A stretch of DNA of 64,000 nt from Acidobacteriota bacterium (GTDB lineage Bacteria; Acidobacteriota; Thermoanaerobaculia; Gp7-AA8). The position numbers and the translations under genes were made by a program. Every line of letters begins with the position of its first letter. Position 1 is the first letter of the stretch. Location of the stretch: positions 384,001 to 448,000 of the forward strand of contig JAFATB010000006.1 in the NCBI GenBank assembly GCA_019244185.1, in the 5' to 3' direction. The notes under the pieces are model-generated. The model was not told where the DNA came from and did not search any database. It saw nothing but the letters and a program-made list of their open reading frames with translations. Positions 53,233-60,913 of the stretch are shown here, one piece after another.

Positions 53233-54261
53233 GTGTCCGCGAACTGGCTGCTGTACGGCGCGAACGGCTACACCGGCGAGCTGATCGCGCGCGAGGCCGT
53301 GCGCCGCGGCATCCATCCGATTCTCGCCGGCCGCAGCACGGAGAAGATCGAGCCGCTCGCGCGCGAGCTGCAATGCGAATCGCGCGTCTTCGACGTCCGT
53401 AAGCCCGATCTGCGCGGCGTTGCGCTCGTGCTCCACTGCGCCGGGCCGTTCGTGCACACCAGCGCGCCGATGGTCGACGCGTGTCTCGCGTCGGGCGTGC
53501 ACTATCTCGACATCACCGGCGAGATCGACGTCTTCGAAGCAGTGCTCGCGCGCGATGCCGAGGCGAAGCAGCGCAACGTGGCGCTCCTCCCCGGCGTCGG
53601 CTTCGACGTCGTTCCCACCGACTGTCTCGGCGCGATGCTGCATGCGCGCATGCCCGACGCCGTCGAGCTGTGGCTCGCGTTCGACTCGCGCCGCGGCGGC
53701 ATCAGCCGCGGCACGCTGCGCACGATGCTCGAAGGCCTGGGCAAGGGCGGCGCGATTCGCCGCGACGGGCAGATCGTGCACGTGCCGCTCCTGTACGACG
53801 TCCGCGAAATCCCGTACGCAAGCGGCCCGCGCCTGTCGATGACGATTCCATGGGGCGACGTCGCGACGGCGTTTCATACGACCGGCATTCCGAACATCCG
53901 CGTCTACAACGCCACGCCGCCGTCGACCATCCGCCGCCTGCGCCGCACGCGCTATTTCCTGCCGCTGATGCGCATCACGCCGGTCAAGCGCGCGATGCAG
54001 TGGATGTCGACGCGCAACCGCACGGGACCGGGCGAAACGCAGCGCGCGCAATCGCGCGTCGAGTTGTGGGGACGCGTCGTCAATGCACGCGGCGAAGAAG
54101 CCACAATGACCCTGTCGACGCCCGAGGGATATTCATTCACCGTGCTGTCATCGTTGGAGGCGGTGCGGAGAATTCTGCAGGAGCCGCGCGCCGGCGCATT
54201 CACACCCGCGCGCGCCTTTGGAATGAATTTCGTCAATGAGGTATTGACAAACGCACAATAG
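53233..54261 (+). CDS. Saccharopine dehydrogenase-like NAD(P)-binding oxidoreductase
   Basis: YGANGYTG, HCAGPF, HYLDITGE, GFDVVPTD, GAFTPA. Confidence 0.9.
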   Translation: MSANWLLYGANGYTGELIAREAVRRGIHPILAGRSTEKIEPLARELQCESRVFDVRKPDLRGVALVLHCAGPFVHTSAPMVDACLASGVHYLDITGEIDVFEAVLARDAEAKQRNVALLPGVGFDVVPTDCLGAMLHARMPDAVELWLAFDSRRGGISRGTLRTMLEGLGKGGAIRRDGQIVHVPLLYDVREIPYASGPRLSMTIPWGDVATAFHTTGIPNIRVYNATPPSTIRRLRRTRYFLPLMRITPVKRAMQWMSTRNRTGPGETQRAQSRVELWGRVVNARGEEATMTLSTPEGYSFTVLSSLEAVRRILQEPRAGAFTPARAFGMNFVNEVLTNAQ

Positions 54262-54276
54262 GCGCGCTATTGTGCG
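54244..54276 (+). promoter_or_regulatory. Sigma70-like promoter overlapped by a 10-bp inverted-repeat operator
   Basis: TTGACA 54244-54249; TATTGT 54268-54273; CGCACAATAG-N5-CTATTGTGCG. Confidence 0.7.
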
Positions 54277-54300
54277 CCACCCTTACAAACGACGACGAAC

Positions 54301-54381
54301 ATGATGACCAAACGCGAACAGAGATATTGGATCGGTCGACCGGAATTTCCGGGAACCGCCGGAGGTACGCTCGTGCCCTAG
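54301..54381 (+). CDS. Putative attenuator leader peptide MMTKREQRYWIGRPEFPGTAGGTLVP
   Basis: 26-codon ORF just downstream of the promoter; its 3' end is one strand of the antiterminator. Confidence 0.65.
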   Translation: MMTKREQRYWIGRPEFPGTAGGTLVP

Positions 54382-54409
54382 CCGATGCTCAGCATCCGCT
54401 CATTGCACG

Positions 54410-54448
54410 AGCCCCTTCGGTCATGACAGCCGAAGGGGCTTTTTGTTT
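54410..54448 (+). terminator. Intrinsic terminator (attenuator)
   Basis: AGCCCCTTCGG/CCGAAGGGGCT 11-bp stem + TTTTTGTTT. Confidence 0.88.
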
Positions 54449-54556
54449 GGTTTTTACTGAATTTCGAGGATGAGACCGTCCGGGTCCGGCGGCGCGCAGG
54501 TCGCTGACACTGTCGCGTTCCGTGTACGGGTTCTGACGAAGGAAGGTTGATTCCTG

Positions 54557-54629
54557 CCATGTGTAGCTCATTGGGTAGAGCGCAGGACTGATAATCCTGG
54601 GGTAGCGGGTTCGAATCCCGCCACAACCA
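54557..54629 (+). tRNA. tRNA-like RNA, anticodon GAT (Ile), with a defective acceptor stem (pseudo-tRNA or Y-RNA-like)
   Basis: Intact D arm GCTC/GAGC, anticodon arm CAGGA-CTGATAA-TCCTG, T arm GCGGG-TTCGAAT-CCCGC; acceptor CCATGTG/CACAACC pairs only 4 of 7. Confidence 0.8.
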
Positions 54630-54644
54630 TCCTTACACGCCGAC

Positions 54645-54867
54645 TGACCGCCGTTAGCGGTCACCGGCCGCGGCGTCGAATCGCGGTCAAGCCTGCCGGC
54701 GCTTCTGTAATGGCGCACCGGCAAGCGCGGAAGGAGCTCTGCAGCGCGCGTGCAGCGCGCAATGCGCTCCCACAATGCGGTGCGACGTCATTGTGGGAGC
54801 GCGCGTGGCGGCGCAGCGCTCCGCTCTGTAACGCGTGGCTTTTCCGCGCATTGGGCGCCCGGCCGGT
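54645..54867 (+). ncRNA. Candidate structured RNA or repeat element upstream of the slipin gene
   Basis: Stems TGACCGC/GCGGTCA, ACCGGCCG/CGGCCGGT (54663-54670 / 54860-54867) and 14-bp GCGCTCCCACAATG/CATTGTGGGAGCGC. Confidence 0.45.
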
Positions 54868-54894
54868 CTTATTGAGGAAAGGAGGGACCGAACC

Positions 54895-55995
54895 ATGTTT
54901 CGGCGTATGAAGATTCTTCCGCACGAGCGGGGCCTTCTGTTTCGTGAGGGCGCGTTCGCCGGCGTACTGCGGCCGGGCGTTCATTGGACGTTCGATCCGC
55001 TCCTGAAGCTGCGGCTCTTTGTCGTGTCGCCGCGCAATCCGTGGCTCGACCACCGCGACCTCGACCTCATCGTGAAGTCGGGCAAGCTCGGCGGCGAGGC
55101 CATTGTGGTCGACCTCAAGGACTACGAGCGCGCGCTCGTCTGGATCGACGGCCGCTTCGCGGCGGTGCTCGATACCGGCCTGTACGCGCTGTGGACCGTG
55201 GAGCGCGATGTGCGCGTCGAGATCGTCGACGCGCGGACGATGCGCTTCGACCACGCGGAGCTGCCGGTGATCGTGCGTTCGCGGACGGCGGCGTCCGTGC
55301 TCGAGGTCGTGCATGTGGAGGCCAACCACGCGGGACTGTGGTTCCGCGACGGCGCCTATCAGGCGACGCTCGCTCCGGGCACGTACGCGTTCTGGCGGAA
55401 CGTCGGCAAGCTGCAGGTCCAAATGGTCGATCTCCGCGAGCTGACGCTCGACATCAGCGGTCAGGAGATCATGACGGCCGACAAGGTCACGCTGCGCCTC
55501 AATGCGCTTGTCAACTACCGCGTCACCGATCCGCTGCGGTCGGTCGCGGAGGTCGACGGTGCGGCGCAGGCGCTCTACCGCGCCGCGCAGCTTGCGCTGC
55601 GCGAAGCGGTGGGCGCGAAGGACCTCGACGCGCTGCTCGTCGCGAAGGATGCGCTCGCGGGTGAGCTGTCCGTCGCGATCGCGCCGCGCGCCGCGGAGCT
55701 CGGCCTCACGGTCGTCGCCGCGGGTGTCCGCGACGTCATCCTGCCGGGCGACATGAAGGAGCTGATGAACAAGGTGACCGAGGCGAAGAAGGCCGCGGAG
55801 GCATCGCTGATCACGCGCCGTGAGGAGACGGCGGCGATGCGGATGCAGGCCAACACCGCGAAGATCCTCGAGGCGAGTCCGACGCTGATGAAGCTGAAGG
55901 AGCTCGAGGTGCTCGAGAAGGTCGCGCACAAGGCGAACCTCACCGTGGTCCTCGGCGACGAGGGCCTGGCGGACAAGGTCGTCAAGCTGCTGTAA
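54895..55995 (+). CDS. Slipin family (SPFH/Band 7) protein with repeated N-terminal beta modules
   Basis: SD AAGGAGG; HERGLLFR.G repeats, VDLRE....SGQEIMT.DKV.LR.N, RDVILPG, RREETAA.R...NTA. Confidence 0.9.
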   Translation: MFRRMKILPHERGLLFREGAFAGVLRPGVHWTFDPLLKLRLFVVSPRNPWLDHRDLDLIVKSGKLGGEAIVVDLKDYERALVWIDGRFAAVLDTGLYALWTVERDVRVEIVDARTMRFDHAELPVIVRSRTAASVLEVVHVEANHAGLWFRDGAYQATLAPGTYAFWRNVGKLQVQMVDLRELTLDISGQEIMTADKVTLRLNALVNYRVTDPLRSVAEVDGAAQALYRAAQLALREAVGAKDLDALLVAKDALAGELSVAIAPRAAELGLTVVAAGVRDVILPGDMKELMNKVTEAKKAAEASLITRREETAAMRMQANTAKILEASPTLMKLKELEVLEKVAHKANLTVVLGDEGLADKVVKLL

Positions 55996-56051: not shown

Positions 56052-56690
56052 ATGAACAAAGACAAAGTTCGGGACATGATCCGCAGCATCCTGCCGTCGA
56101 AGGCGCGGGTGGGCGCGCGGTTCGGCAAGAGGTTCGAAAAGCGGCGCGTGCGCCACGCCATTCGCGCGGCGTTGCGCGCGGGAACGTTCGACGCCGATCT
56201 GCGGCGCGACGCGGACCTCTCGACGGTCGTCTGGTGGCGGCGCACCGCCGACAAGCTCCACCCTTTCATGCGCTGGTGCCGCGCGCGCACCGCGGGCATG
56301 ACGCCGGAGGAAGCGCTCGGCTACGTGCGCGGCCTGTTGCCGCGGAATCTCATCGGCGATCACGCGTACGGACACTGGGAAGCGGTCGTGCGGCCGTACA
56401 TGGGCCGGCTGCCGACAGTTCGCACGCGGCTCGACGTCGGGACGCTCTGCACGCGTTTGCGCGCGGCGTACGAGCGCGATCCGTCGCTCGTCGGGATGTT
56501 GAACGCCGCGATCAAGAGCCGTATCGCATTCGACGAACCACGCCGGCTGCTGTTCGGCGTGCACGACATCGACGCCTTCGCACGCGACGCGCTCCGACGC
56601 GGGAGCATCGAGCTCGATTGCGCGATGGCAATCATGGAAGAGATCGAAGGGCGGCCGAACGGCCGCCCTTCCCATTTTCGCGCCGCGTGA
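56052..56690 (+). CDS. Basic hypothetical protein (212 aa)
   Basis: SD AAGGAG; Arg/Lys-rich N-terminus; no family recognised. Confidence 0.75.
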   Translation: MNKDKVRDMIRSILPSKARVGARFGKRFEKRRVRHAIRAALRAGTFDADLRRDADLSTVVWWRRTADKLHPFMRWCRARTAGMTPEEALGYVRGLLPRNLIGDHAYGHWEAVVRPYMGRLPTVRTRLDVGTLCTRLRAAYERDPSLVGMLNAAIKSRIAFDEPRRLLFGVHDIDAFARDALRRGSIELDCAMAIMEEIEGRPNGRPSHFRAA

Positions 56691-56713: not shown

Positions 56714-59700
56714 ATGTCCCTCGATCGCTTTCATCCCGTCCTCCAACGCTGGTTCTCTGACACCCTCGGCACTCCGACACCCGCGCAGCAGCAAGGGTGG
56801 TCCGCCATCCGCGAGCGCCGTCACACGCTCATCGCCGCGCCGACCGGCTCGGGTAAAACGCTCGCGGCGTTTCTGACCGCGCTCGACGACCTTTTCGTCG
56901 AAGCGCTGACCGCGCCGCTGCCTGATGAAGTGCGCGTCGTCTACGTCTCGCCGCTGAAAGCGCTCAGCGCCGACATCCACAAAAATCTCGCCGAGCCGCG
57001 CCACGGAATCCGCCGCATCGCGGAAGAACTGAACATCGACGCGCGCATCACGGCCGGCGTGCGCACCGGCGACACGACCTCGAGCGAACGCGCGGCGATG
57101 CTGAAGACGCCGCCGCACATCCTCGTCACGACGCCGGAGTCGCTCTACCTCCTGCTCACCGCCGAGCGCAGCCGCAACATGCTGCGCAGCGTGCGCACCG
57201 TGATCGTCGACGAGATTCACGCCGTGATCGGCACGCGCCGCGGCGCGCACCTCGCGCTCACGCTCGAACGCCTGCAACACGTCGCCGAAGCGCCGCTCCT
57301 GCGTATCGGACTCTCCGCGACGCAGAAGCCGATCGAAGCCGTCGCGCGCTATCTCACCGGCGGCGGCGACTGCACGATCGTCGACGAAGGCCACCGCCGC
57401 GCGATGGACCTCACGCTCGAGGTGCCGCGCTCGCCGCTCGAAGCGGTGATGTCCGCGGAAGTGTGGGAGGAGTATTACGACGCGCTGGTGCGGCTCATCG
57501 AGTCGCATCGCACGACGCTCGTCTTCGTGAACACGCGCAAGATGGCCGAGCGCGTCGCGCGTCACCTCAGCGATCGCCTCGGCGAAGACGCGGTGACCGC
57601 GCACCACGGCAGTCTCTCGAAAGAGAACCGTCTCGACGCGGAGACGCGGCTCAAAACCGGTCAGCTGAAAGCGCTCGTCGCGACGGCGTCGCTGGAGCTC
57701 GGCATCGACATCGGCCACGTCGATCTGGTCTGCCAGCTCGGCTCGCCGCACCGCATCGCCACGCTCCTGCAGCGCGTCGGCCGCTCGGGACACACCGTCT
57801 CCGGGCTGCCGAAAGGACGCGTCTTTCCAACCTCGCGCGACGATCTCTTTGAATGCGCGGCGCTGCTGCGCGCGGTCAAGCGCGGCGAGCTCGATCAGAT
57901 CGTCACGCACGACGCCCCGCTCGACGTGCTCGCACAACAACTCGTCGCCGAATCGTCGTGCGACGACTACGCGGAAGACGCGCTCTTCGCGCTGGCGAAA
58001 CGCGCGTGGCCGTACCGCGCGCTCGAACGCGGCGCGTTCGACGACGTCGTGAAGATGATGGCCGACGGCTTCGCCACGAAGCGCGGACGCCGCGGCGCGC
58101 TCATGCATCGCGACGAAGTGCACGGCAACGTGCGCGGACGCCGCGGCTCGCGCCTGCTCGCGCTCACGTCCGGCGGTGCGATCCCGGAAGTCGCCGACTA
58201 CCGCGTCGTGCAGGAGCCGGACGAGACGTTCATTGGAACGCTCAACGAGGACTTCGCGATCGAGAGCAACATCGGCGACGTCTTCCAGCTCGGCAACACT
58301 TCGTGGCGCGTGCTGCAGGTGTCGGGCGGCGTCGTGCGCGTCGCGGATGCGCACGGCGAGCCGCCGAGCATTCCGTTTTGGCTCGGCGAAGCGCCCGCGC
58401 GGAGCGACGAGCTGTCGCGCGCGGTGAGCTCGCTGCGCGCCGATCTCGAGCCGCTGCTCGACGATCGCGAGGCCGCGATCGCGTGGCTCGTCGACGCGTG
58501 CGGGATTCCGCGCGCCGCCGCCGAGCCGCTCATCGAGTACCTCGCCGAATCGCACCGCGTCCTCGGCACACTCCCGACGCAACAGACGCTCGTCCTCGAG
58601 CGCTTCTTCGACGAGTCGGGCGGCATGCAGCTCATCCTCCACGCGCCGTTCGGCAGCCGCATCAACAAGGCGTGGGGGCTCGCGCTGCGCAAGCGCTTCT
58701 GCCGGCAGTTCGATTTCGAATTGCAGGCCGCGGCGACGGAGGACGCGATCCTCTTGTCGCTCGGCCCACAGCATTCGTTTCCGCTCGCGGATGTCTTCCG
58801 CTATCTGCATCCCGCGACCGCGCGCGACGTGCTCGTGCAGGCCTTCCTCGACGCGCCGGTGTGGCAGACGCGCTGGCGGTGGAACGCGACGATCTCGCTG
58901 GCGGTGCCGCGCAATCGCAACGGCAAGAAGATCGCGCCGCAGTTGCAGCGCACGCTCGCCGACGATCTGATGGCCGCGGTGTTCCCAGACGCCGCAGCGT
59001 GCTTCGAGAACATCGGCGGCGACCGCAAGATCCCCGATCATCCGCTTGTCAACCAAGCCGTGCGCGACTGCCTCGAGGAAGCGATGGACTTCGACGGCCT
59101 CGCGCGCGTGCTGACCCGCATTCACGCGGACGAGCTGACGCTCGTCGCGCGCGATACGCCCGAGCCGTCGCCGCTCGCGCACGAGATCCTCAACGCGCAG
59201 CCGTACGCGTTTCTCGATGATGCGCCGCTCGAGGAGCGCCGCACGAACGCGGTCTACACGCGCCGCGTCGCCGACGCCGCGTCCGCGCGCGAGCTCGGCG
59301 CGCTCGACCTCGCGGCGATCGAACGCGTGCGCGACGAAGAGCGGCCCGATCCGCGCGATGCGGACGAGCTGCACGACGCGTTGCTGACGTTCGGCTTTCT
59401 CACGGACGAGGACGCGCCGCACGAGCTCTTCGACGCGCTCGCCGCGGCGAAACGCGCGACGCGCGTGCACGGACTCTGGTTCGCCGCGGAGCGCCTGCCG
59501 GAGCTCCTGGCCATTCATCGCGTCGAGACGACGATCGCGCCGCCGGCATCGCGCCTCACGCGCACGTGGTCGCGCGAGGAAGCGCTCGTCGAGTTGCTGC
59601 GCGGACGGCTTTCGCTCGTCGGACCGGCGACGTCTGACGCGCTCGCGTCGCTGCTCGCGGTACCGCAATCGAACGTCGACGCCGCGCTGCTCGCGCTCGA

Positions 59701-60913
59701 AGGCGAGGGCGCGATTCTGCGCGGCAACTTCACGCCCGGCGCGTCGCAGCTCGAATGGTGCGACCGGCGCCTGCTCGCGCGCATCCACCGCTACACGCTC
59801 AATCGTCTGCGCGCGGAGATCGAGCCGGTCACCGCCGCCGACTTCACGCGTTTCCTCTTCGCGTGGCAGCACGTGACGCCGTCGTCGCGCCTCAGTGGCA
59901 TCGATGGACTGCAGGAGCTGCTCGCCCAACTCGACGGCTTCGAACTCGCCGCAAACGCGTGGGAGCGCTCGGTGCTGCCCGCGCGCATGGACCGCTACGA
60001 CGCGTCGATGCTCGACACGCTCTGCTTCGCCGGCGTGGCCGGCTGGGCGCGCGTCTCACCGCCGACCGGCGCCGCGCTGCCCGTCGGCGCGACGCCGATC
60101 GCGCTGTTTCTCCGCGAGCACGCGGCGACGTGGCAGTCGCTGCGCGAGACGGCGCCGGTCGCGTTGTCCGAACAAGCGCAACGCGTCGTCGACACGCTTC
60201 GCGCGCGCGGCGCGTCGTTCGCGCGCGAGCTCGCGGCGCTCTGCGAGCTCGACGAAGCCGCGCTCGAACGCGCGCTCGGTGAGCTGGTCTGCGCGGGACT
60301 CGTGACGTCCGACGGCTTCGCCGGTCTGCGCTCGCTCGTGCGCGCGTCGCACGAGAAACGCGCGCGCACCGACGTCGCGGGACGGTGGTCGCTGCTCGCC
60401 TCCGACGCGAACGGCGACGACGCGCTGGAGCTGCAGGCGCGCACGTTCCTCCGCCGCTACGGCATCGTCTTCCGCCGCCTCCTCGCGCGCGAGTCGAACG
60501 CCGCGCCGTGGCGCGAGCTCGCACGCGTCTACCGCCGCATGGAAGCGCGCGGCGACCTGCGCGGCGGCCGCTTCGTCGCCGGCATGCCCGGCGAACAGTT
60601 CGCGCTCCCCGACGCCGTCGAACGCCTGCGCGAGATCCGCCGCACCCCGCACGACGGCACGCTGGTCGTGCTCTCCGCCGCCGACCCGCTCAACCTCACC
60701 GGCACCACCTCGCCCGGCGATCGCATCCGCGCCACACCCGGCACGCGCATCGCGTACCGCGACGGCGTGCCGGTGTCCGTGATGGAAGGCGACTACGTGC
60801 GCCCGCTCACGGACATCGAATCGAACGACGCGCTCACCGTCGCCGCCGCGCTCGCGGGGCGTGCGGTCGCGGCGGGGCGGGGGTGGGTGGGGCGGGGGTG
60901 GGTGGGGCGGTGA
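56714..60913 (+). CDS. lhr: Lhr-family ATP-dependent helicase with extended C-terminal domain
   Basis: APTGSGKT, YVSPLKAL, TTPESL, DEIH, LSAT, SLELGID, QRVGRSGH; RGGRFV..GEQFA C-terminus. Confidence 0.92.
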   Translation: MSLDRFHPVLQRWFSDTLGTPTPAQQQGWSAIRERRHTLIAAPTGSGKTLAAFLTALDDLFVEALTAPLPDEVRVVYVSPLKALSADIHKNLAEPRHGIRRIAEELNIDARITAGVRTGDTTSSERAAMLKTPPHILVTTPESLYLLLTAERSRNMLRSVRTVIVDEIHAVIGTRRGAHLALTLERLQHVAEAPLLRIGLSATQKPIEAVARYLTGGGDCTIVDEGHRRAMDLTLEVPRSPLEAVMSAEVWEEYYDALVRLIESHRTTLVFVNTRKMAERVARHLSDRLGEDAVTAHHGSLSKENRLDAETRLKTGQLKALVATASLELGIDIGHVDLVCQLGSPHRIATLLQRVGRSGHTVSGLPKGRVFPTSRDDLFECAALLRAVKRGELDQIVTHDAPLDVLAQQLVAESSCDDYAEDALFALAKRAWPYRALERGAFDDVVKMMADGFATKRGRRGALMHRDEVHGNVRGRRGSRLLALTSGGAIPEVADYRVVQEPDETFIGTLNEDFAIESNIGDVFQLGNTSWRVLQVSGGVVRVADAHGEPPSIPFWLGEAPARSDELSRAVSSLRADLEPLLDDREAAIAWLVDACGIPRAAAEPLIEYLAESHRVLGTLPTQQTLVLERFFDESGGMQLILHAPFGSRINKAWGLALRKRFCRQFDFELQAAATEDAILLSLGPQHSFPLADVFRYLHPATARDVLVQAFLDAPVWQTRWRWNATISLAVPRNRNGKKIAPQLQRTLADDLMAAVFPDAAACFENIGGDRKIPDHPLVNQAVRDCLEEAMDFDGLARVLTRIHADELTLVARDTPEPSPLAHEILNAQPYAFLDDAPLEERRTNAVYTRRVADAASARELGALDLAAIERVRDEERPDPRDADELHDALLTFGFLTDEDAPHELFDALAAAKRATRVHGLWFAAERLPELLAIHRVETTIAPPASRLTRTWSREEALVELLRGRLSLVGPATSDALASLLAVPQSNVDAALLALEGEGAILRGNFTPGASQLEWCDRRLLARIHRYTLNRLRAEIEPVTAADFTRFLFAWQHVTPSSRLSGIDGLQELLAQLDGFELAANAWERSVLPARMDRYDASMLDTLCFAGVAGWARVSPPTGAALPVGATPIALFLREHAATWQSLRETAPVALSEQAQRVVDTLRARGASFARELAALCELDEAALERALGELVCAGLVTSDGFAGLRSLVRASHEKRARTDVAGRWSLLASDANGDDALELQARTFLRRYGIVFRRLLARESNAAPWRELARVYRRMEARGDLRGGRFVAGMPGEQFALPDAVERLREIRRTPHDGTLVVLSAADPLNLTGTTSPGDRIRATPGTRIAYRDGVPVSVMEGDYVRPLTDIESNDALTVAAALAGRAVAAGRGWVGRGWVGR
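60874..60910 (+). repeat. G-rich 15-bp tandem duplication at the lhr 3' end
   Basis: GGGGCGGGGGTGGGT x2 + GGGGCGG, encoding GRGWV x2. Confidence 0.8.

Follow-up and report, generated by a model that had tools for sequence, protein, structure and literature searches.

A tRNA-like module within a conserved structured RNA upstream of SPFH/Band-7 genes in Thermoanaerobaculia: a probable non-decoding tRNA mimic

The locus and its tRNA-like module

The window, by which is meant the entire 64-kb stretch of DNA that was analysed (64,000 nucleotides), carries a conserved structured RNA directly upstream of a gene encoding an SPFH/Band-7 protein. A saccharopine-dehydrogenase-like gene, a 212-aa open reading frame (ORF) and a gene for an Lhr helicase are the neighbours in the window. 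The features of the locus are:

54244..54273 (+), sigma-70-like promoter (TTGACA, 18-nt spacer, TATTGT; 10 of 12 matches) preceding the micro-ORF
54301..54381 (+), conserved micro-ORF of 26 codons with the end ...AGGTLVP; similar ORFs in relatives
54409..54451 (+), intrinsic terminator-like hairpin with a T tract, just 5' of the RNA; 13 pairs, 8 of them G-C
about 54476..54873 (+), the whole conserved structured RNA, ~398 nt; ends approximate, from alignments
54560..54625 (+), tRNA-like cloverleaf with a 4-pair acceptor, D arm, anticodon arm, 5-nt variable loop and T arm
54876..55995 (+), ribosome-binding site AGGAAAGGAGGG and SPFH/Band-7 gene (ATG 54895, 366 aa, no predicted membrane segment)
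56052..56690 (+), conserved 212-aa partner ORF of no assigned family, found after the SPFH gene in 10 loci
56714..60913 (+), Lhr-type large helicase of 1399 aa

The sigma-70-like promoter may start a transcript that reads into the RNA; TTGACA occurs at a similar distance in 13 other loci. A scan for sigma-70 promoters found only this upstream promoter and none directly before the RNA, and GGCGATAA, inspected by eye, fits neither a sigma-70 nor a sigma-54 promoter. About 28 loci contain an ORF of 15-44 codons with a stop 25-34 nt before the terminator and an end that mostly conforms to an AGG/GG(x3)R-type motif, and this conserved micro-ORF could equally be an RNA motif. The stem sequence of the terminator-like hairpin recurs in most loci. 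Among the sequencing runs listed as containing the locus, eight are DNA runs and none is an RNA run.

The SPFH gene (PF01145, E 7.9e-34) starts 228 nt past the conserved 3' block of the RNA described below. The maximum 19-residue hydropathy of its product is 1.51, and therefore no membrane segment is predicted. In the structural model of the protein (pLDDT 86.4), an SPFH fold like that of the cage-forming proteins stomatin, HflK/C and prohibitin (Z 13-18) precedes a long helix. No match was obtained in PADLOC for the SPFH protein, nor in Pfam, NCBIfam or PADLOC for the 212-aa partner; homology of the latter to an HNH protein of genome G729 was considered, and the single 15-residue match (E 0.006) is insufficient. 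Six loci, one of which is a duplicate, have Lhr at a distance of about 2-6 kb from the RNA.

The Rfam tRNA model (RF00005) matches 54560-54625 on the forward strand with 57.9 bits against a gathering score of 29 (E 6.6e-10 in the 64-kb window; model positions 4-67 of 71), a tRNA likeness far beyond chance. A previous reading of the DNA based on its letters (the sequence-only reading) had described a tRNA(GAT) look-alike with intact D, anticodon and T arms and an acceptor of four pairs, TGTG (54560-63) with CACA (54622-25). This description is correct: the D stem is formed by 54566-69 and 54578-81, the anticodon stem by 54583-87 and 54595-99, enclosing the loop CTGATAA (54588-54594) with GAT at 54590-92, and the T stem by 54605-09 and 54617-21. 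In the acceptor, positions 4-7 are paired with 66-69, and the pairs 1-3 with 70-72 are unformed. ARAGORN called no tRNA within the 64-kb window and rejected the module, which fits the defective acceptor. All coordinates and strings of that reading were located, namely GTTCTG (54530-35), GACGAAGG (54535-42), AAGGA (54539-43), GGTTG (54545-49), TGTG (54560-63), CAGGAC (54583-88), CACA (54622-25), ACCA (54626-29) and TCCTT (54630-34). Some of these strings form the two strands of a closing stem:

54539..54548 (+), 5' strand AAGGA.AGGT, pairing with 54626-54634; not conserved in the family
54626..54634 (+), 3' strand, ACCA followed by TCCTT; ACCA unconserved

The family of RNAs upstream of SPFH genes

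The RNA belongs to a family present in ~40 distinct Thermoanaerobaculia loci, in each of which it lies directly upstream of an SPFH/Band-7 gene on the same strand. With the 3' block and its P5 hairpin as search pattern, 12 genome loci, all labelled Thermoanaerobaculia or Acidobacteriota, and 35 metagenome loci, 5 of them false positives, were obtained; the match in genome G030 is confined to the generic tRNA part and was excluded as support. In 35 of the 43 true loci the SPFH gene follows on the same strand after 177-423 nt, and 6 of the other 8 have less than 300 nt of flanking sequence. Conversely, the T-loop GGTTCGA was found in all 22 upstream regions of family SPFH orthologues that were examined. 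As judged from the sequences, the RNA and the SPFH gene are shown to be inseparable across ~40 loci.

In alignments the conserved stretch of the RNA extends from ACCGTCCGGG to the T tract that follows CGGCCGGT. Its parts in the window are:

54483..54489 (+), 5' strand of P1, GG.CCGG; RNAalifold partner CCGGCC at 54664-54669; closes the 5' domain
54491..54519 (+), P2 hairpin, GGCGCGC with GTCGCGTT, variable loop; some compensatory changes
54520..54529 (+), P3 mini-hairpin CCG-TGTA-CGG, from the RNAalifold alignment
54530..54542 (+), conserved single-stranded or half-helix motif GTTCTGACGAAGG, which includes GACGAAGG; family consensus TTCTRACGAWGG
54642..54667 (+), conserved 3' block with the P5 hairpin TGACCGC-CGTTA-GCGGTCA (54645-54663), from alignments
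54663..54670 (+), ACCGGCCG, 5' strand of the long-range helix, overlapping the P1 3' strand and the P6 hairpin (54668-72 with 54682-86)
54694..54723 (+), P7 hairpin, TGCCGGCGC with GCGCACCGGCA; stem changes in register between loci (alignment); also in the minimum free energy (MFE) structure
54743..54830 (+), sub-domain closed by AGCGC (54743-47) with GCGCT (54826-30), the best-covarying helix
54860..54873 (+), CGGCCGGT, 3' strand of the long-range helix, then the T tract CTTATT; terminator-like or attenuator-like

The 5' domain comprises P1, P2, P3, the TTCTRACGAWGG motif, the tRNA-like module and the P5 hairpin. The pairs of P1 are retained in 18-21 of the 21 sequences folded with RNAalifold and have no covariation support because the columns are invariant. 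The loop of P2 varies in length from about 5 to 35 nt, P3 is also found upstream of distant SPFH orthologues (L118, L121-L123), and P5 displays a compensatory change from GACC/GGTC to GATC/GATC. The 3' domain of ~190 nt is closed by the long-range helix, and its T tract ends ~10 nt before the ribosome-binding site of the SPFH gene. In the AGCGC/GCGCT helix, 31 cells are changed on both sides over the 5 pairs. A column-pair helix search on MAFFT blocks recovered P2, P5 and one helix of the 3' domain. It missed the long-range helix because of the limits of the alignment, and this helix was instead tested sequence by sequence: CGGCCGGT is the best complement in 24 of 31 loci, with 6-12 contiguous pairs (at least 7 in 22), compensatory variants occur in L078, the L039 type, L045 and L052, and the helix is contained in the MFE structure of 11 of 18 sequences, that of the window among them.

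The tRNA-like modules were compared in a set of 40 distinct modules from 36 loci. The elbow is invariant and the stems covary: 7 types of anticodon stem and 5 types of T stem were counted, all of them canonical, and among 21 sequences folded with RNAalifold, pairs of the anticodon stem are changed in a compensatory manner in 8, 2 and 3 sequences and pairs of the T stem in 2 and 3. The same analysis did not predict an acceptor stem. Entropy is at most 0.35 bit in the stems versus 1.4-1.65 bit at the anticodon, which is hypervariable, with 15 triplets among the 40 modules and U33 in 22. An arms race need not be behind this hypervariability, which may simply stem from a lack of constraint. The modules also vary in number and arrangement: tandem modules occur in L040, L050, L104, L108, L112 and L115; T-arm-only or mini forms in L043, L051, L062, L065, L067, L041, L045 and L049; and circular permutations, in which the T arm is followed by a closed acceptor hairpin, the D arm and then the anticodon arm, in L046 and L059. 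These comparisons of natural sequence variants show that selection retains the tRNA body, i.e. the elbow and the anticodon stem, but leaves the anticodon, the 3' end and even the arm order free.

The extended closing stem proposed in the sequence-only reading is real in the window (RNAduplex -13.0 kcal/mol, z = -2.63 against 200 shuffles) but does not extend to the family. Across the family the mean z is -0.32 and z lies below -1 in only 9 of 39 members, for which reason the closing stem and split acceptor were rejected as a conserved trait. CACAACCA is present only in the window and in L072 among the 35 modules listed. The acceptor split by a 12-nt bulge is likewise peculiar to the window, the family keeping a short acceptor of 3-4 contiguous pairs (29 of 40 modules). 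It had also been suggested that GTTCTG pairs with CAGGAC around a second T-loop-like AGGTTGATTCCT to give a circularly permuted fold. The complementarity exists, but comparison of the relatives lends it no support: GTTCTG is nearly invariant, while the 5' strand of the anticodon stem changes together with its own 3' strand, and AGGTTGATTCCT is unconserved in the relatives. The permuted fold of the window sequence therefore lacks comparative support.

Decay of a tRNA-Ile gene, or an att-site tRNA remnant of an integrated element, would account for the three missing 5' acceptor bases, and the assembly contains no tRNA-Ile(GAT) gene for comparison. This origin is extremely unlikely. The assembly, in which tRNA-Ala(TGC) is missing as well, contains no identical or nearly identical intact tRNA; the best match reaches 74% over 60 nt and the closest true tRNA, tRNA-Asn(GTT), 75%. 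The module occupies the same site within a conserved RNA in ~40 loci, with differing anticodons and compensatory stem changes, and is flanked on both sides by sequences conserved alongside it. An unassembled rRNA operon is the remaining place where an identical tRNA could reside. Mutations scattered over all arms, as decay would produce, were not seen in the orthologues, which keep the D arm, the anticodon stem and the T arm with compensatory changes while the anticodon and the acceptor end vary; the view that the module is a functional mimic and not a product of random decay is thus upheld.

There is virtually no chance that the module is a true tRNA-Ile that decodes in spite of an unusual acceptor with a bulge. 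In favour of this reading stand the canonical body of the cloverleaf, the standard anticodon loop (CTGATAA) and the ACCA that comes after the four acceptor pairs. However, the module is rejected by ARAGORN and does not have the seven-pair acceptor and conserved anticodon of a decoding tRNA. The orthologues contain 15 anticodons, the loops of 18 of the 40 modules lack U33, ACCA is unconserved, and the permuted and T-arm-only orthologues cannot be aminoacylated as tRNAs.

RNA-repair context and proposed functions

Distant SPFH orthologues (37-44% identity) with an upstream tRNA-like RNA are encoded in RNA-repair loci. The order RtcB-RNA-SPFH is found in G729, G595 and G619, and SPFH-Hen1-Pnkp in G495. 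In G659 a divergent RtcR gene is accompanied by a sigma-54 promoter, TGGCAC-N5-TTGC, upstream of the RNA and the SPFH gene together. Among the nine loci of the phylum with a readable flank (L118, L120-L127) five display a repair context. The distant relatives also include other Band-7/tRNA-like arrangements, such as tRNA arrays located downstream. No RNA ligase gene adjoins the locus in the window, and in the source genome RtcB is encoded on contig C7 and Hen1 on contig C22. The link to repair therefore rests on the distant relatives.

[quoted passage not shown] (2018, bioRxiv 10.1101/312249). In that account the gene for RtcB adjoins those of a Band-7 protein and of a predicted RNA, the b7a-tRNA, which "strongly resembles an authentic tRNA"; this RNA is apparently redundant with YrlA and is so far a purely computational prediction, without experimental validation. 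The module in the window resembles a tRNA (57.9 bits), though with a 4-pair acceptor and a negative ARAGORN result, and it adjoins an SPFH/Band-7 gene; location within an RNA-repair locus is found not in the window but in G729, G595, G619, G659 and G495. Membership in the class is judged here only from the second-hand description of Wang et al. (2018). The literature searched, which did not include the paper that defined b7a-tRNA, yielded no description of an SPFH-linked structured RNA in Acidobacteriota, and Wang et al. (2018) is the single paper in it that mentions b7a-tRNA by name.

We consider it probable, at roughly 0.7, that the module is a Band-7-linked, non-decoding tRNA mimic inside a ~400-nt RNA, that it fits the b7a-tRNA class and that it is functionally tied to the downstream SPFH gene. 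The RNA is probably transcribed together with the SPFH gene because there is no room for a separate promoter and because, in one relative, a sigma-54 promoter and a divergent RtcR gene lie upstream. The RNA would act by its shape. It might be a cofactor or scaffold through which tRNA-recognising enzymes of repair and processing become docked on an oligomeric Band-7 protein, or it might be a tRNA-like bait or sensor in a response to tRNA damage; either option would have a parallel in Ro60-YrlA. Strands of P1 and P6 overlap the terminator-like long-range helix, which suggests in addition that folding of the tRNA domain could set the level of read-through into the SPFH gene.

According to another scenario, the RNA is purely a cis-acting regulatory leader of the SPFH mRNA, devoid of any function in trans. 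Binding of a tRNA-recognising factor to the tRNA-like domain, or cleavage of the domain, would influence which of the alternatives forms, P1/P6 or the long-range helix with the T tract, and in this way control read-through or translation. The RNA always lies directly upstream of the SPFH gene on the same strand, and with a spacer of only ~10 nt between T tract and ribosome-binding site in the window, transcription of the gene has to pass through the RNA. In G659 a single sigma-54 promoter precedes the RNA and the gene together. Moreover, ACCGGCCG can pair with the 5' block, locally in P6, or with CGGCCGGT before the T tract (24 of 31 loci; 11 of 18 MFE structures). Arguing against this scenario, a terminator with a conserved 190-nt domain as its "loop" would be atypical, a scan with a terminator consensus finds none at the long-range helix, and the distant tRNA-like/Band-7 arrangements, including the downstream tRNA arrays, better fit a partner that acts in trans. 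An exclusively cis-acting leader is unlikely. The roles of leader and cofactor are not mutually exclusive.

The sequence-only reading had assigned the RNA a YrlA-like character on the basis of the motif GNCGAAN0-1G, which is a YrlA motif (Chen et al. 2014, PMC4201824) and is matched by GACGAAGG at 54535-54542, within the family consensus TTCTRACGAWGG. The motif is indeed present, the RNA contains a tRNA-like domain, the relatives lie in RNA-repair contexts, so that in broad terms the RNA shares the functional neighbourhood of YrlA, and two relatives, L046 and L059, even have the YrlA-like order of T arm, closed acceptor stem-loop and D arm, an order that the window module does not possess. A bacterial Y RNA of the YrlA family would be expected to work by binding the Ro60/Rsr protein and to have the gene of this protein close by on the same strand. 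The TROVE domain (PF05731) was not found in the source genome G000 (98.9% complete) or in the carriers G007, G019, G096, G110 and G729, whereas both control genomes, D. radiodurans and B. thetaiotaomicron, gave hits. The Rfam YrlA model RF02553 (gathering score 69) gave nothing at the locus at E values up to 1, nor in a scan of 54200-54950 at E values up to 10, and its best match in the genome, 26.8 bits, falls on ordinary tRNA loci. The strict motif is limited to 17 of 39 members and 3 of 18 further loci. That the RNA is a Ro60-binding YrlA is therefore highly improbable.

A more far-reaching version of the bait hypothesis is doubtful on present evidence. The RNA and the soluble SPFH protein would form a caged, vault-like ribonucleoprotein that surveys tRNA damage, in which the module, with its fast-evolving anticodon loop, would be a bait for anticodon-loop ribotoxins and a switch for the downstream genes. 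Once the bait is cleaved or occupied, the domain closed by P1 would unfold, the balance with the long-range terminator-like helix would shift, and the genes for Band-7, the 212-aa protein and Lhr would be switched on. If true, the system would be a self-contained RNA-damage sensor, independent of the RtcB/Pnkp ligase operons that still house its relatives.

The ~40 loci constitute a natural mutagenesis series, with single, tandem, T-arm-only and permuted modules, free anticodons and short acceptors, and show that selection requires the D/T elbow, the anticodon stem and, on the flanks, two conserved domains. They link SPFH proteins, a cage-forming group, to bacterial RNA biology. They are also a warning for annotation, as such elements are neither tRNA pseudogenes nor att sites.

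Comparison with known systems

Transfer RNA genes are cotranscribed with protein genes, and tRNA-like processing signals occur in mRNAs. The RNA shares with such arrangements a tRNA-shaped element located toward the 5' end of what is probably one transcript with the protein gene downstream. Cotranscribed tRNAs, however, decode and have full acceptor stems, whereas here neither the anticodon nor the acceptor is under constraint, and the RNA on either side is itself structured and conserved.

The eukaryotic vault contains the major vault protein (MVP) with an SPFH-like shoulder, a vault RNA and the TROVE-domain protein TEP1, as described in bioRxiv 10.1101/872010. To the extent of that description, the putative pairing of a small structured RNA with a soluble SPFH-fold protein that is predicted to possess beta repeats and a long helix resembles the vault. 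MVP is the only structure class that aligned over the N-terminal repeats of the model (Z 11.5-11.8; residues 4-327 versus MVP 323-690). Compared on their own, the repeats score highest (Z 5.4) with the beta part at the N-terminus of SPFH proteins and reach Z 3.2 with MVP R1-R7, which is too weak for an MVP-like reading of the repeats.

With YrlA, as characterized in the sources cited above, the RNA has in common the conserved T and D arms of its tRNA-like domain, a CGAA-type, purine-rich motif on the 5' side of that domain and the tie to RNA-repair operons; only L046 and L059 share the permuted succession of arms. The module in the window differs in its normal 5'-to-3' arm order and complete anticodon arm. 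No Ro60 gene was found in the six carrier genomes, the YrlA model has no match at the locus and the motif is partly conserved.

The closest counterpart, as far as the account by Wang et al. (2018) allows comparison, is b7a-tRNA. Both are tRNA-like non-coding RNAs encoded beside a Band-7/SPFH protein, orthologous pairs in other Acidobacteriota adjoin RtcB, RtcR or Hen1-Pnkp, and both can be regarded as counterparts of Ro60-YrlA. The mimic of the Thermoanaerobaculia is distinguished by being embedded in a conserved ~400-nt RNA with 5' and 3' domains of its own, by an acceptor cut to 3-4 pairs and a hypervariable anticodon, and by modules that are also tandem, truncated or circularly permuted. 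In place of an adjacent ligase, this lineage has the Lhr helicase and the 212-aa ORF.

The tRNA-like module in the window and in its genome

The element at 54528-54634 is a real finding. It has the shape of a tRNA, its acceptor being short and its anticodon free to vary, and forms one module of a conserved RNA of ~400 nt; the Band-7 gene that follows this RNA is probably transcribed together with it. The strings and coordinates of the sequence-only reading all proved correct on checking the sequence. Its proposal of a tRNA look-alike was borne out by an Rfam match to RF00005 (tRNA; 57.9 bits, E 6.6e-10), cut to model positions 4-67 of 71, which is the sole match above the gathering score within the 64-kb window. 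A permissive Rfam scan of 54200-54950 revealed nothing else significant, the seven remaining rows all having E values of at least 1.3, and ARAGORN called no tRNA over the 64-kb window. The D, anticodon and T arms are canonical, as had been stated, with the anticodon loop CTGATAA, and the acceptor is indeed reduced to pairs 4-7/66-69 (TGTG with CACA), pairs 1-3 being absent. In the window sequence the acceptor stem is lengthened by the upstream GGTT, at a distance of 12 nt, and by AAGGA/TCCTT. The extended closing stem thus proposed is stronger than in shuffles in the window (-13.0 kcal/mol, z = -2.63) but is not a family feature (mean z -0.32, with 9 of 39 members below -1).

An att-site or decay remnant was rejected, since the window's own genome (G000; 26 contigs, 98.9% complete) contains no second copy of the module and the module and its flanks are conserved across loci. 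The next best match within the 26 contigs has 74% identity over 60 nt, and the nearest true tRNA is Asn(GTT), with 75%. ARAGORN identified 55 tRNAs in G000; Ile(GAT) and Ala(TGC) were not found among the 26 contigs, and their genes probably sit in the spacer of an unassembled rRNA operon, so that an identical copy of the module could formally exist. The comparative data on the conserved module make such a copy irrelevant. A second, starred tmRNA call in G000, with a 32-residue tag, looks like a false positive.

The larger conserved RNA

Features of the region (window positions):
54244-54451, +, promoter-ORF-terminator unit
54301-54381, +, micro-ORF of that unit, 26 codons
~54476-54873, +, conserved RNA
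54560-54625, +, RF00005 match
54663-54670, +, ACCGGCCG
54860-54867, +, CGGCCGGT
54895-55995, +, SPFH/Band-7 gene
56052-56690, +, 212-aa ORF
56714-60913, +, Lhr-type helicase gene

Among 41 relatives searched, G007 (78%) and G019 (74%) gave long matches, and only the flanks matched in G001, G004 and G008; in the alignment, neither flank is less conserved than the tRNA-like middle. A pattern of the 3' block retrieved 12 loci from the genome collection, every one of them in a MAG labelled Thermoanaerobaculia or Acidobacteriota, and 35 from metagenomes. The latter set includes 2 duplicates and 5 chance matches that lack every other block (L058, L066, L070, L071, L082). Within the class, 11 of 401 genomes carry the pattern, all of them from one family.

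The common plan begins with a strong terminator-like hairpin, followed by a 5' block (5' strand of helix P1, P2 hairpin, P3 mini-hairpin), the motif TTCTRACGAWGG and the tRNA-like insert. A hairpin with a 7-nt CUNNNAA loop is often present next, though not in the window; then come the P5 hairpin, ACCGGCCG, another ~190 nt of conserved helices, CGGCCGGT, a T tract, and finally the ribosome-binding site and ATG of the SPFH/Band-7 gene.

Directly 5' of the RNA, in the window and in the same position in ~28 related loci, lies a unit consisting of a TTGACA-type promoter, an ORF of 15-44 codons, in most cases with an AGG/GG(x3)R-type motif at its end, and a strong terminator with a stem sequence that is found again at other loci. 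It could specify a micro-protein, a leader peptide or a small RNA. Short, locus-specific tandem repeats of 5-10 nt occur in the variable spacer between T tract and ribosome-binding site at L038, L046, L052, L065, L077 and L084; they are absent from the window.

Variation among 40 distinct cloverleaf modules parsed out of 36 loci; no mismatch in the anticodon and T stems was accepted by the parser, which makes the figures for stems upper bounds
D stem: mean entropy 0.0-0.04 bit
Anticodon stem: mean entropy 0.35 bit; 7 types, all canonical
T stem: mean entropy 0.27-0.29 bit; 5 types, all canonical
Three anticodon positions: entropy 1.42-1.65 bit; 15 distinct triplets
U33: 22 of 40 modules
Acceptor: 3-4 contiguous inner pairs in 29 of 40 modules, 7 pairs in 1 of 40
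Outer acceptor positions: entropy 1.9 bit

RNAalifold, applied to 21 sequences, predicted P1, P2, P3, the D, anticodon and T stems and P5, with compensatory changes in 8, 2 and 3 sequences in the anticodon stem and in 2 and 3 in the T stem; the acceptor stem was not predicted. Six-nucleotide loops occur in at least two further modules (L042, L048). The insert itself may be two cloverleaves in tandem (L040, L050, L104, L108, L112, L115), a T arm only or a mini insert (L043, L051, L062, L065, L067, L041, L045, L049), or a true circular permutation (L046, L059), in which the T arm is followed by a loop-closed acceptor stem of 5-7 pairs, the D arm and the anticodon arm. Anticodon and free 3' end are thus both dispensable, and the comparison of sequences indicates that the part of the module in use is the tRNA body. 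The functional mimic suspected at the outset is borne out by this pattern of a body conserved with compensatory stem changes and a variable anticodon and acceptor end.

In the 3' domain, ACCGGCCG is complementary to CGGCCGGT, which in the window is followed by CTTATT and, ~10 nt further on, by the ribosome-binding site. The CGGCCGGT site is the best ungapped downstream complement in 24 of 31 loci; the helix has 6-12 contiguous pairs (at least 7 in 22 of the 24), shows compensatory variants (e.g., L078, L039 type, L045, L052) and appears in 11 of 18 single-sequence MFE folds, including that of the window. The bases of ACCGGCCG also serve as the 3' strand of P1, which is invariant across the aligned sequences, and as part of a local hairpin, P6. 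From these pairings we infer a two-domain RNA whose overlapping domain-closing helices would have the geometry of an attenuator. A consensus terminator scan called no terminator at CGGCCGGT and the T tract.

The SPFH/Band-7 gene and its neighbours

The product of the gene downstream of the RNA belongs to the SPFH/Band-7 family (PF01145, E 7.9e-34). As revealed by tblastn, the gene lies 177-423 nt 3' of the 3' block on the same strand in 35 of 43 true loci; the other eight are six loci with less than 300 nt of flank, L072 and L073. Three loci are decayed: L054, one of the 35, in which the RNA lacks P2/P3 and only the C-terminal third of the SPFH gene is left; L072, with ~24 first codons followed by a rearrangement; and L073, which has kept the RNA and lost the gene, none being present within 8 kb. 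At E <= 1e-60, 24 of 101 family genomes have an SPFH orthologue, and the T-loop GGTTCGA was found in all 22 extractable upstream regions, including those of g23-type loci, whose 3' block is too divergent for the pattern to detect.

A model of the protein built on 17 orthologues (pLDDT 86.4) predicts three short beta-meander units (residues 1-47, 67-112, 136-180), an SPFH core and a long helix of ~60 residues. Residues 129-350 resemble stomatin, HflK/C, prohibitin, erlin and flotillin (Z 13-18), all ring- or cage-formers. No membrane segment was predicted in the protein (hydropathy maximum 1.51). The major vault protein was the sole match class covering the N-terminal units (Z 11.5-11.8); in a search with these units by themselves, Z did not exceed 5.4, and a vault-like protein is not claimed.

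At E <= 1e-40, SPFH orthologues occur in 15 of 401 genomes of the phylum. A tRNA-like element or T arm also precedes them at L118, L121-L127 and, by Rfam, L120; the Rfam alignments at phylum-level loci are for the most part truncated at the acceptor (4-67, 5-66, 3-68, 10-63). In G729, G595 and G619, RtcB (PF01139, E 3e-124 in G729) is followed by the RNA, SPFH and 3-5 ordinary-looking tRNA genes. In G659, RtcR (PF06956, E 5e-73) is divergent from RNA and SPFH, with a sigma-54 consensus, TGGCAC-N5-TTGC, upstream of the RNA. In G495, a full-length tRNA-like element precedes SPFH, Hen1 (PF12623, E 4e-117) and Pnkp (PF16542, E 1e-179). RtcB and Hen1 of G000 are on contigs other than that of the window.

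The arrays directly 3' of SPFH in the three RtcB-RNA-SPFH genomes (L125 2641-3061, L126 998-1418, L127 1156-1422) were assigned by ARAGORN to Gly-TCC, Thr-GGT, Thr-CGT, Leu-CAA or Cys-GCA, with one further match from Rfam in two of the three; they may act as spares in a repair locus. An HNH protein follows in G729, where the scan extended to further neighbours. In the window, the 212-aa ORF right after the SPFH gene, conserved there in 10 loci, has no family match; its product shares one 15-residue stretch with the HNH protein of G729 (E 0.006). The Lhr-type helicase beyond it reaches 1591 bits with the PADLOC model of DpdJ, which probably just reflects the Lhr-likeness of DpdJ.

Relation to YrlA and b7a-tRNA

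The YrlA-like alternative fold found no support in comparison. [quoted passage not shown] GNCGAAN0-1G is indeed the YrlA motif, as given by Chen et al. (2014, PMC4201824), but its strict form is limited to 17 of 39 members and, among 18 further loci, to 3. YrlA membership fails, as TROVE was not found in any of the six carrier genomes examined and the YrlA model RF02553 gave no match.

[quoted passage not shown] The RNA studied here may act as a cofactor or scaffold, as a bait or sensor, or as a leader. In the literature searched, b7a-tRNA is named only by Wang et al. (2018, bioRxiv 10.1101/312249), according to whom RtcB is encoded beside a Band-7 protein and a predicted b7a-tRNA with strong likeness to an authentic tRNA, and b7a-tRNA and YrlA are apparently redundant and sometimes swap protein partners. 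The window element shares the core features of b7a-tRNA, being tRNA-like and adjoining a Band-7 gene, but differs in not adjoining a ligase gene; it is best filed as a variant b7a-tRNA.
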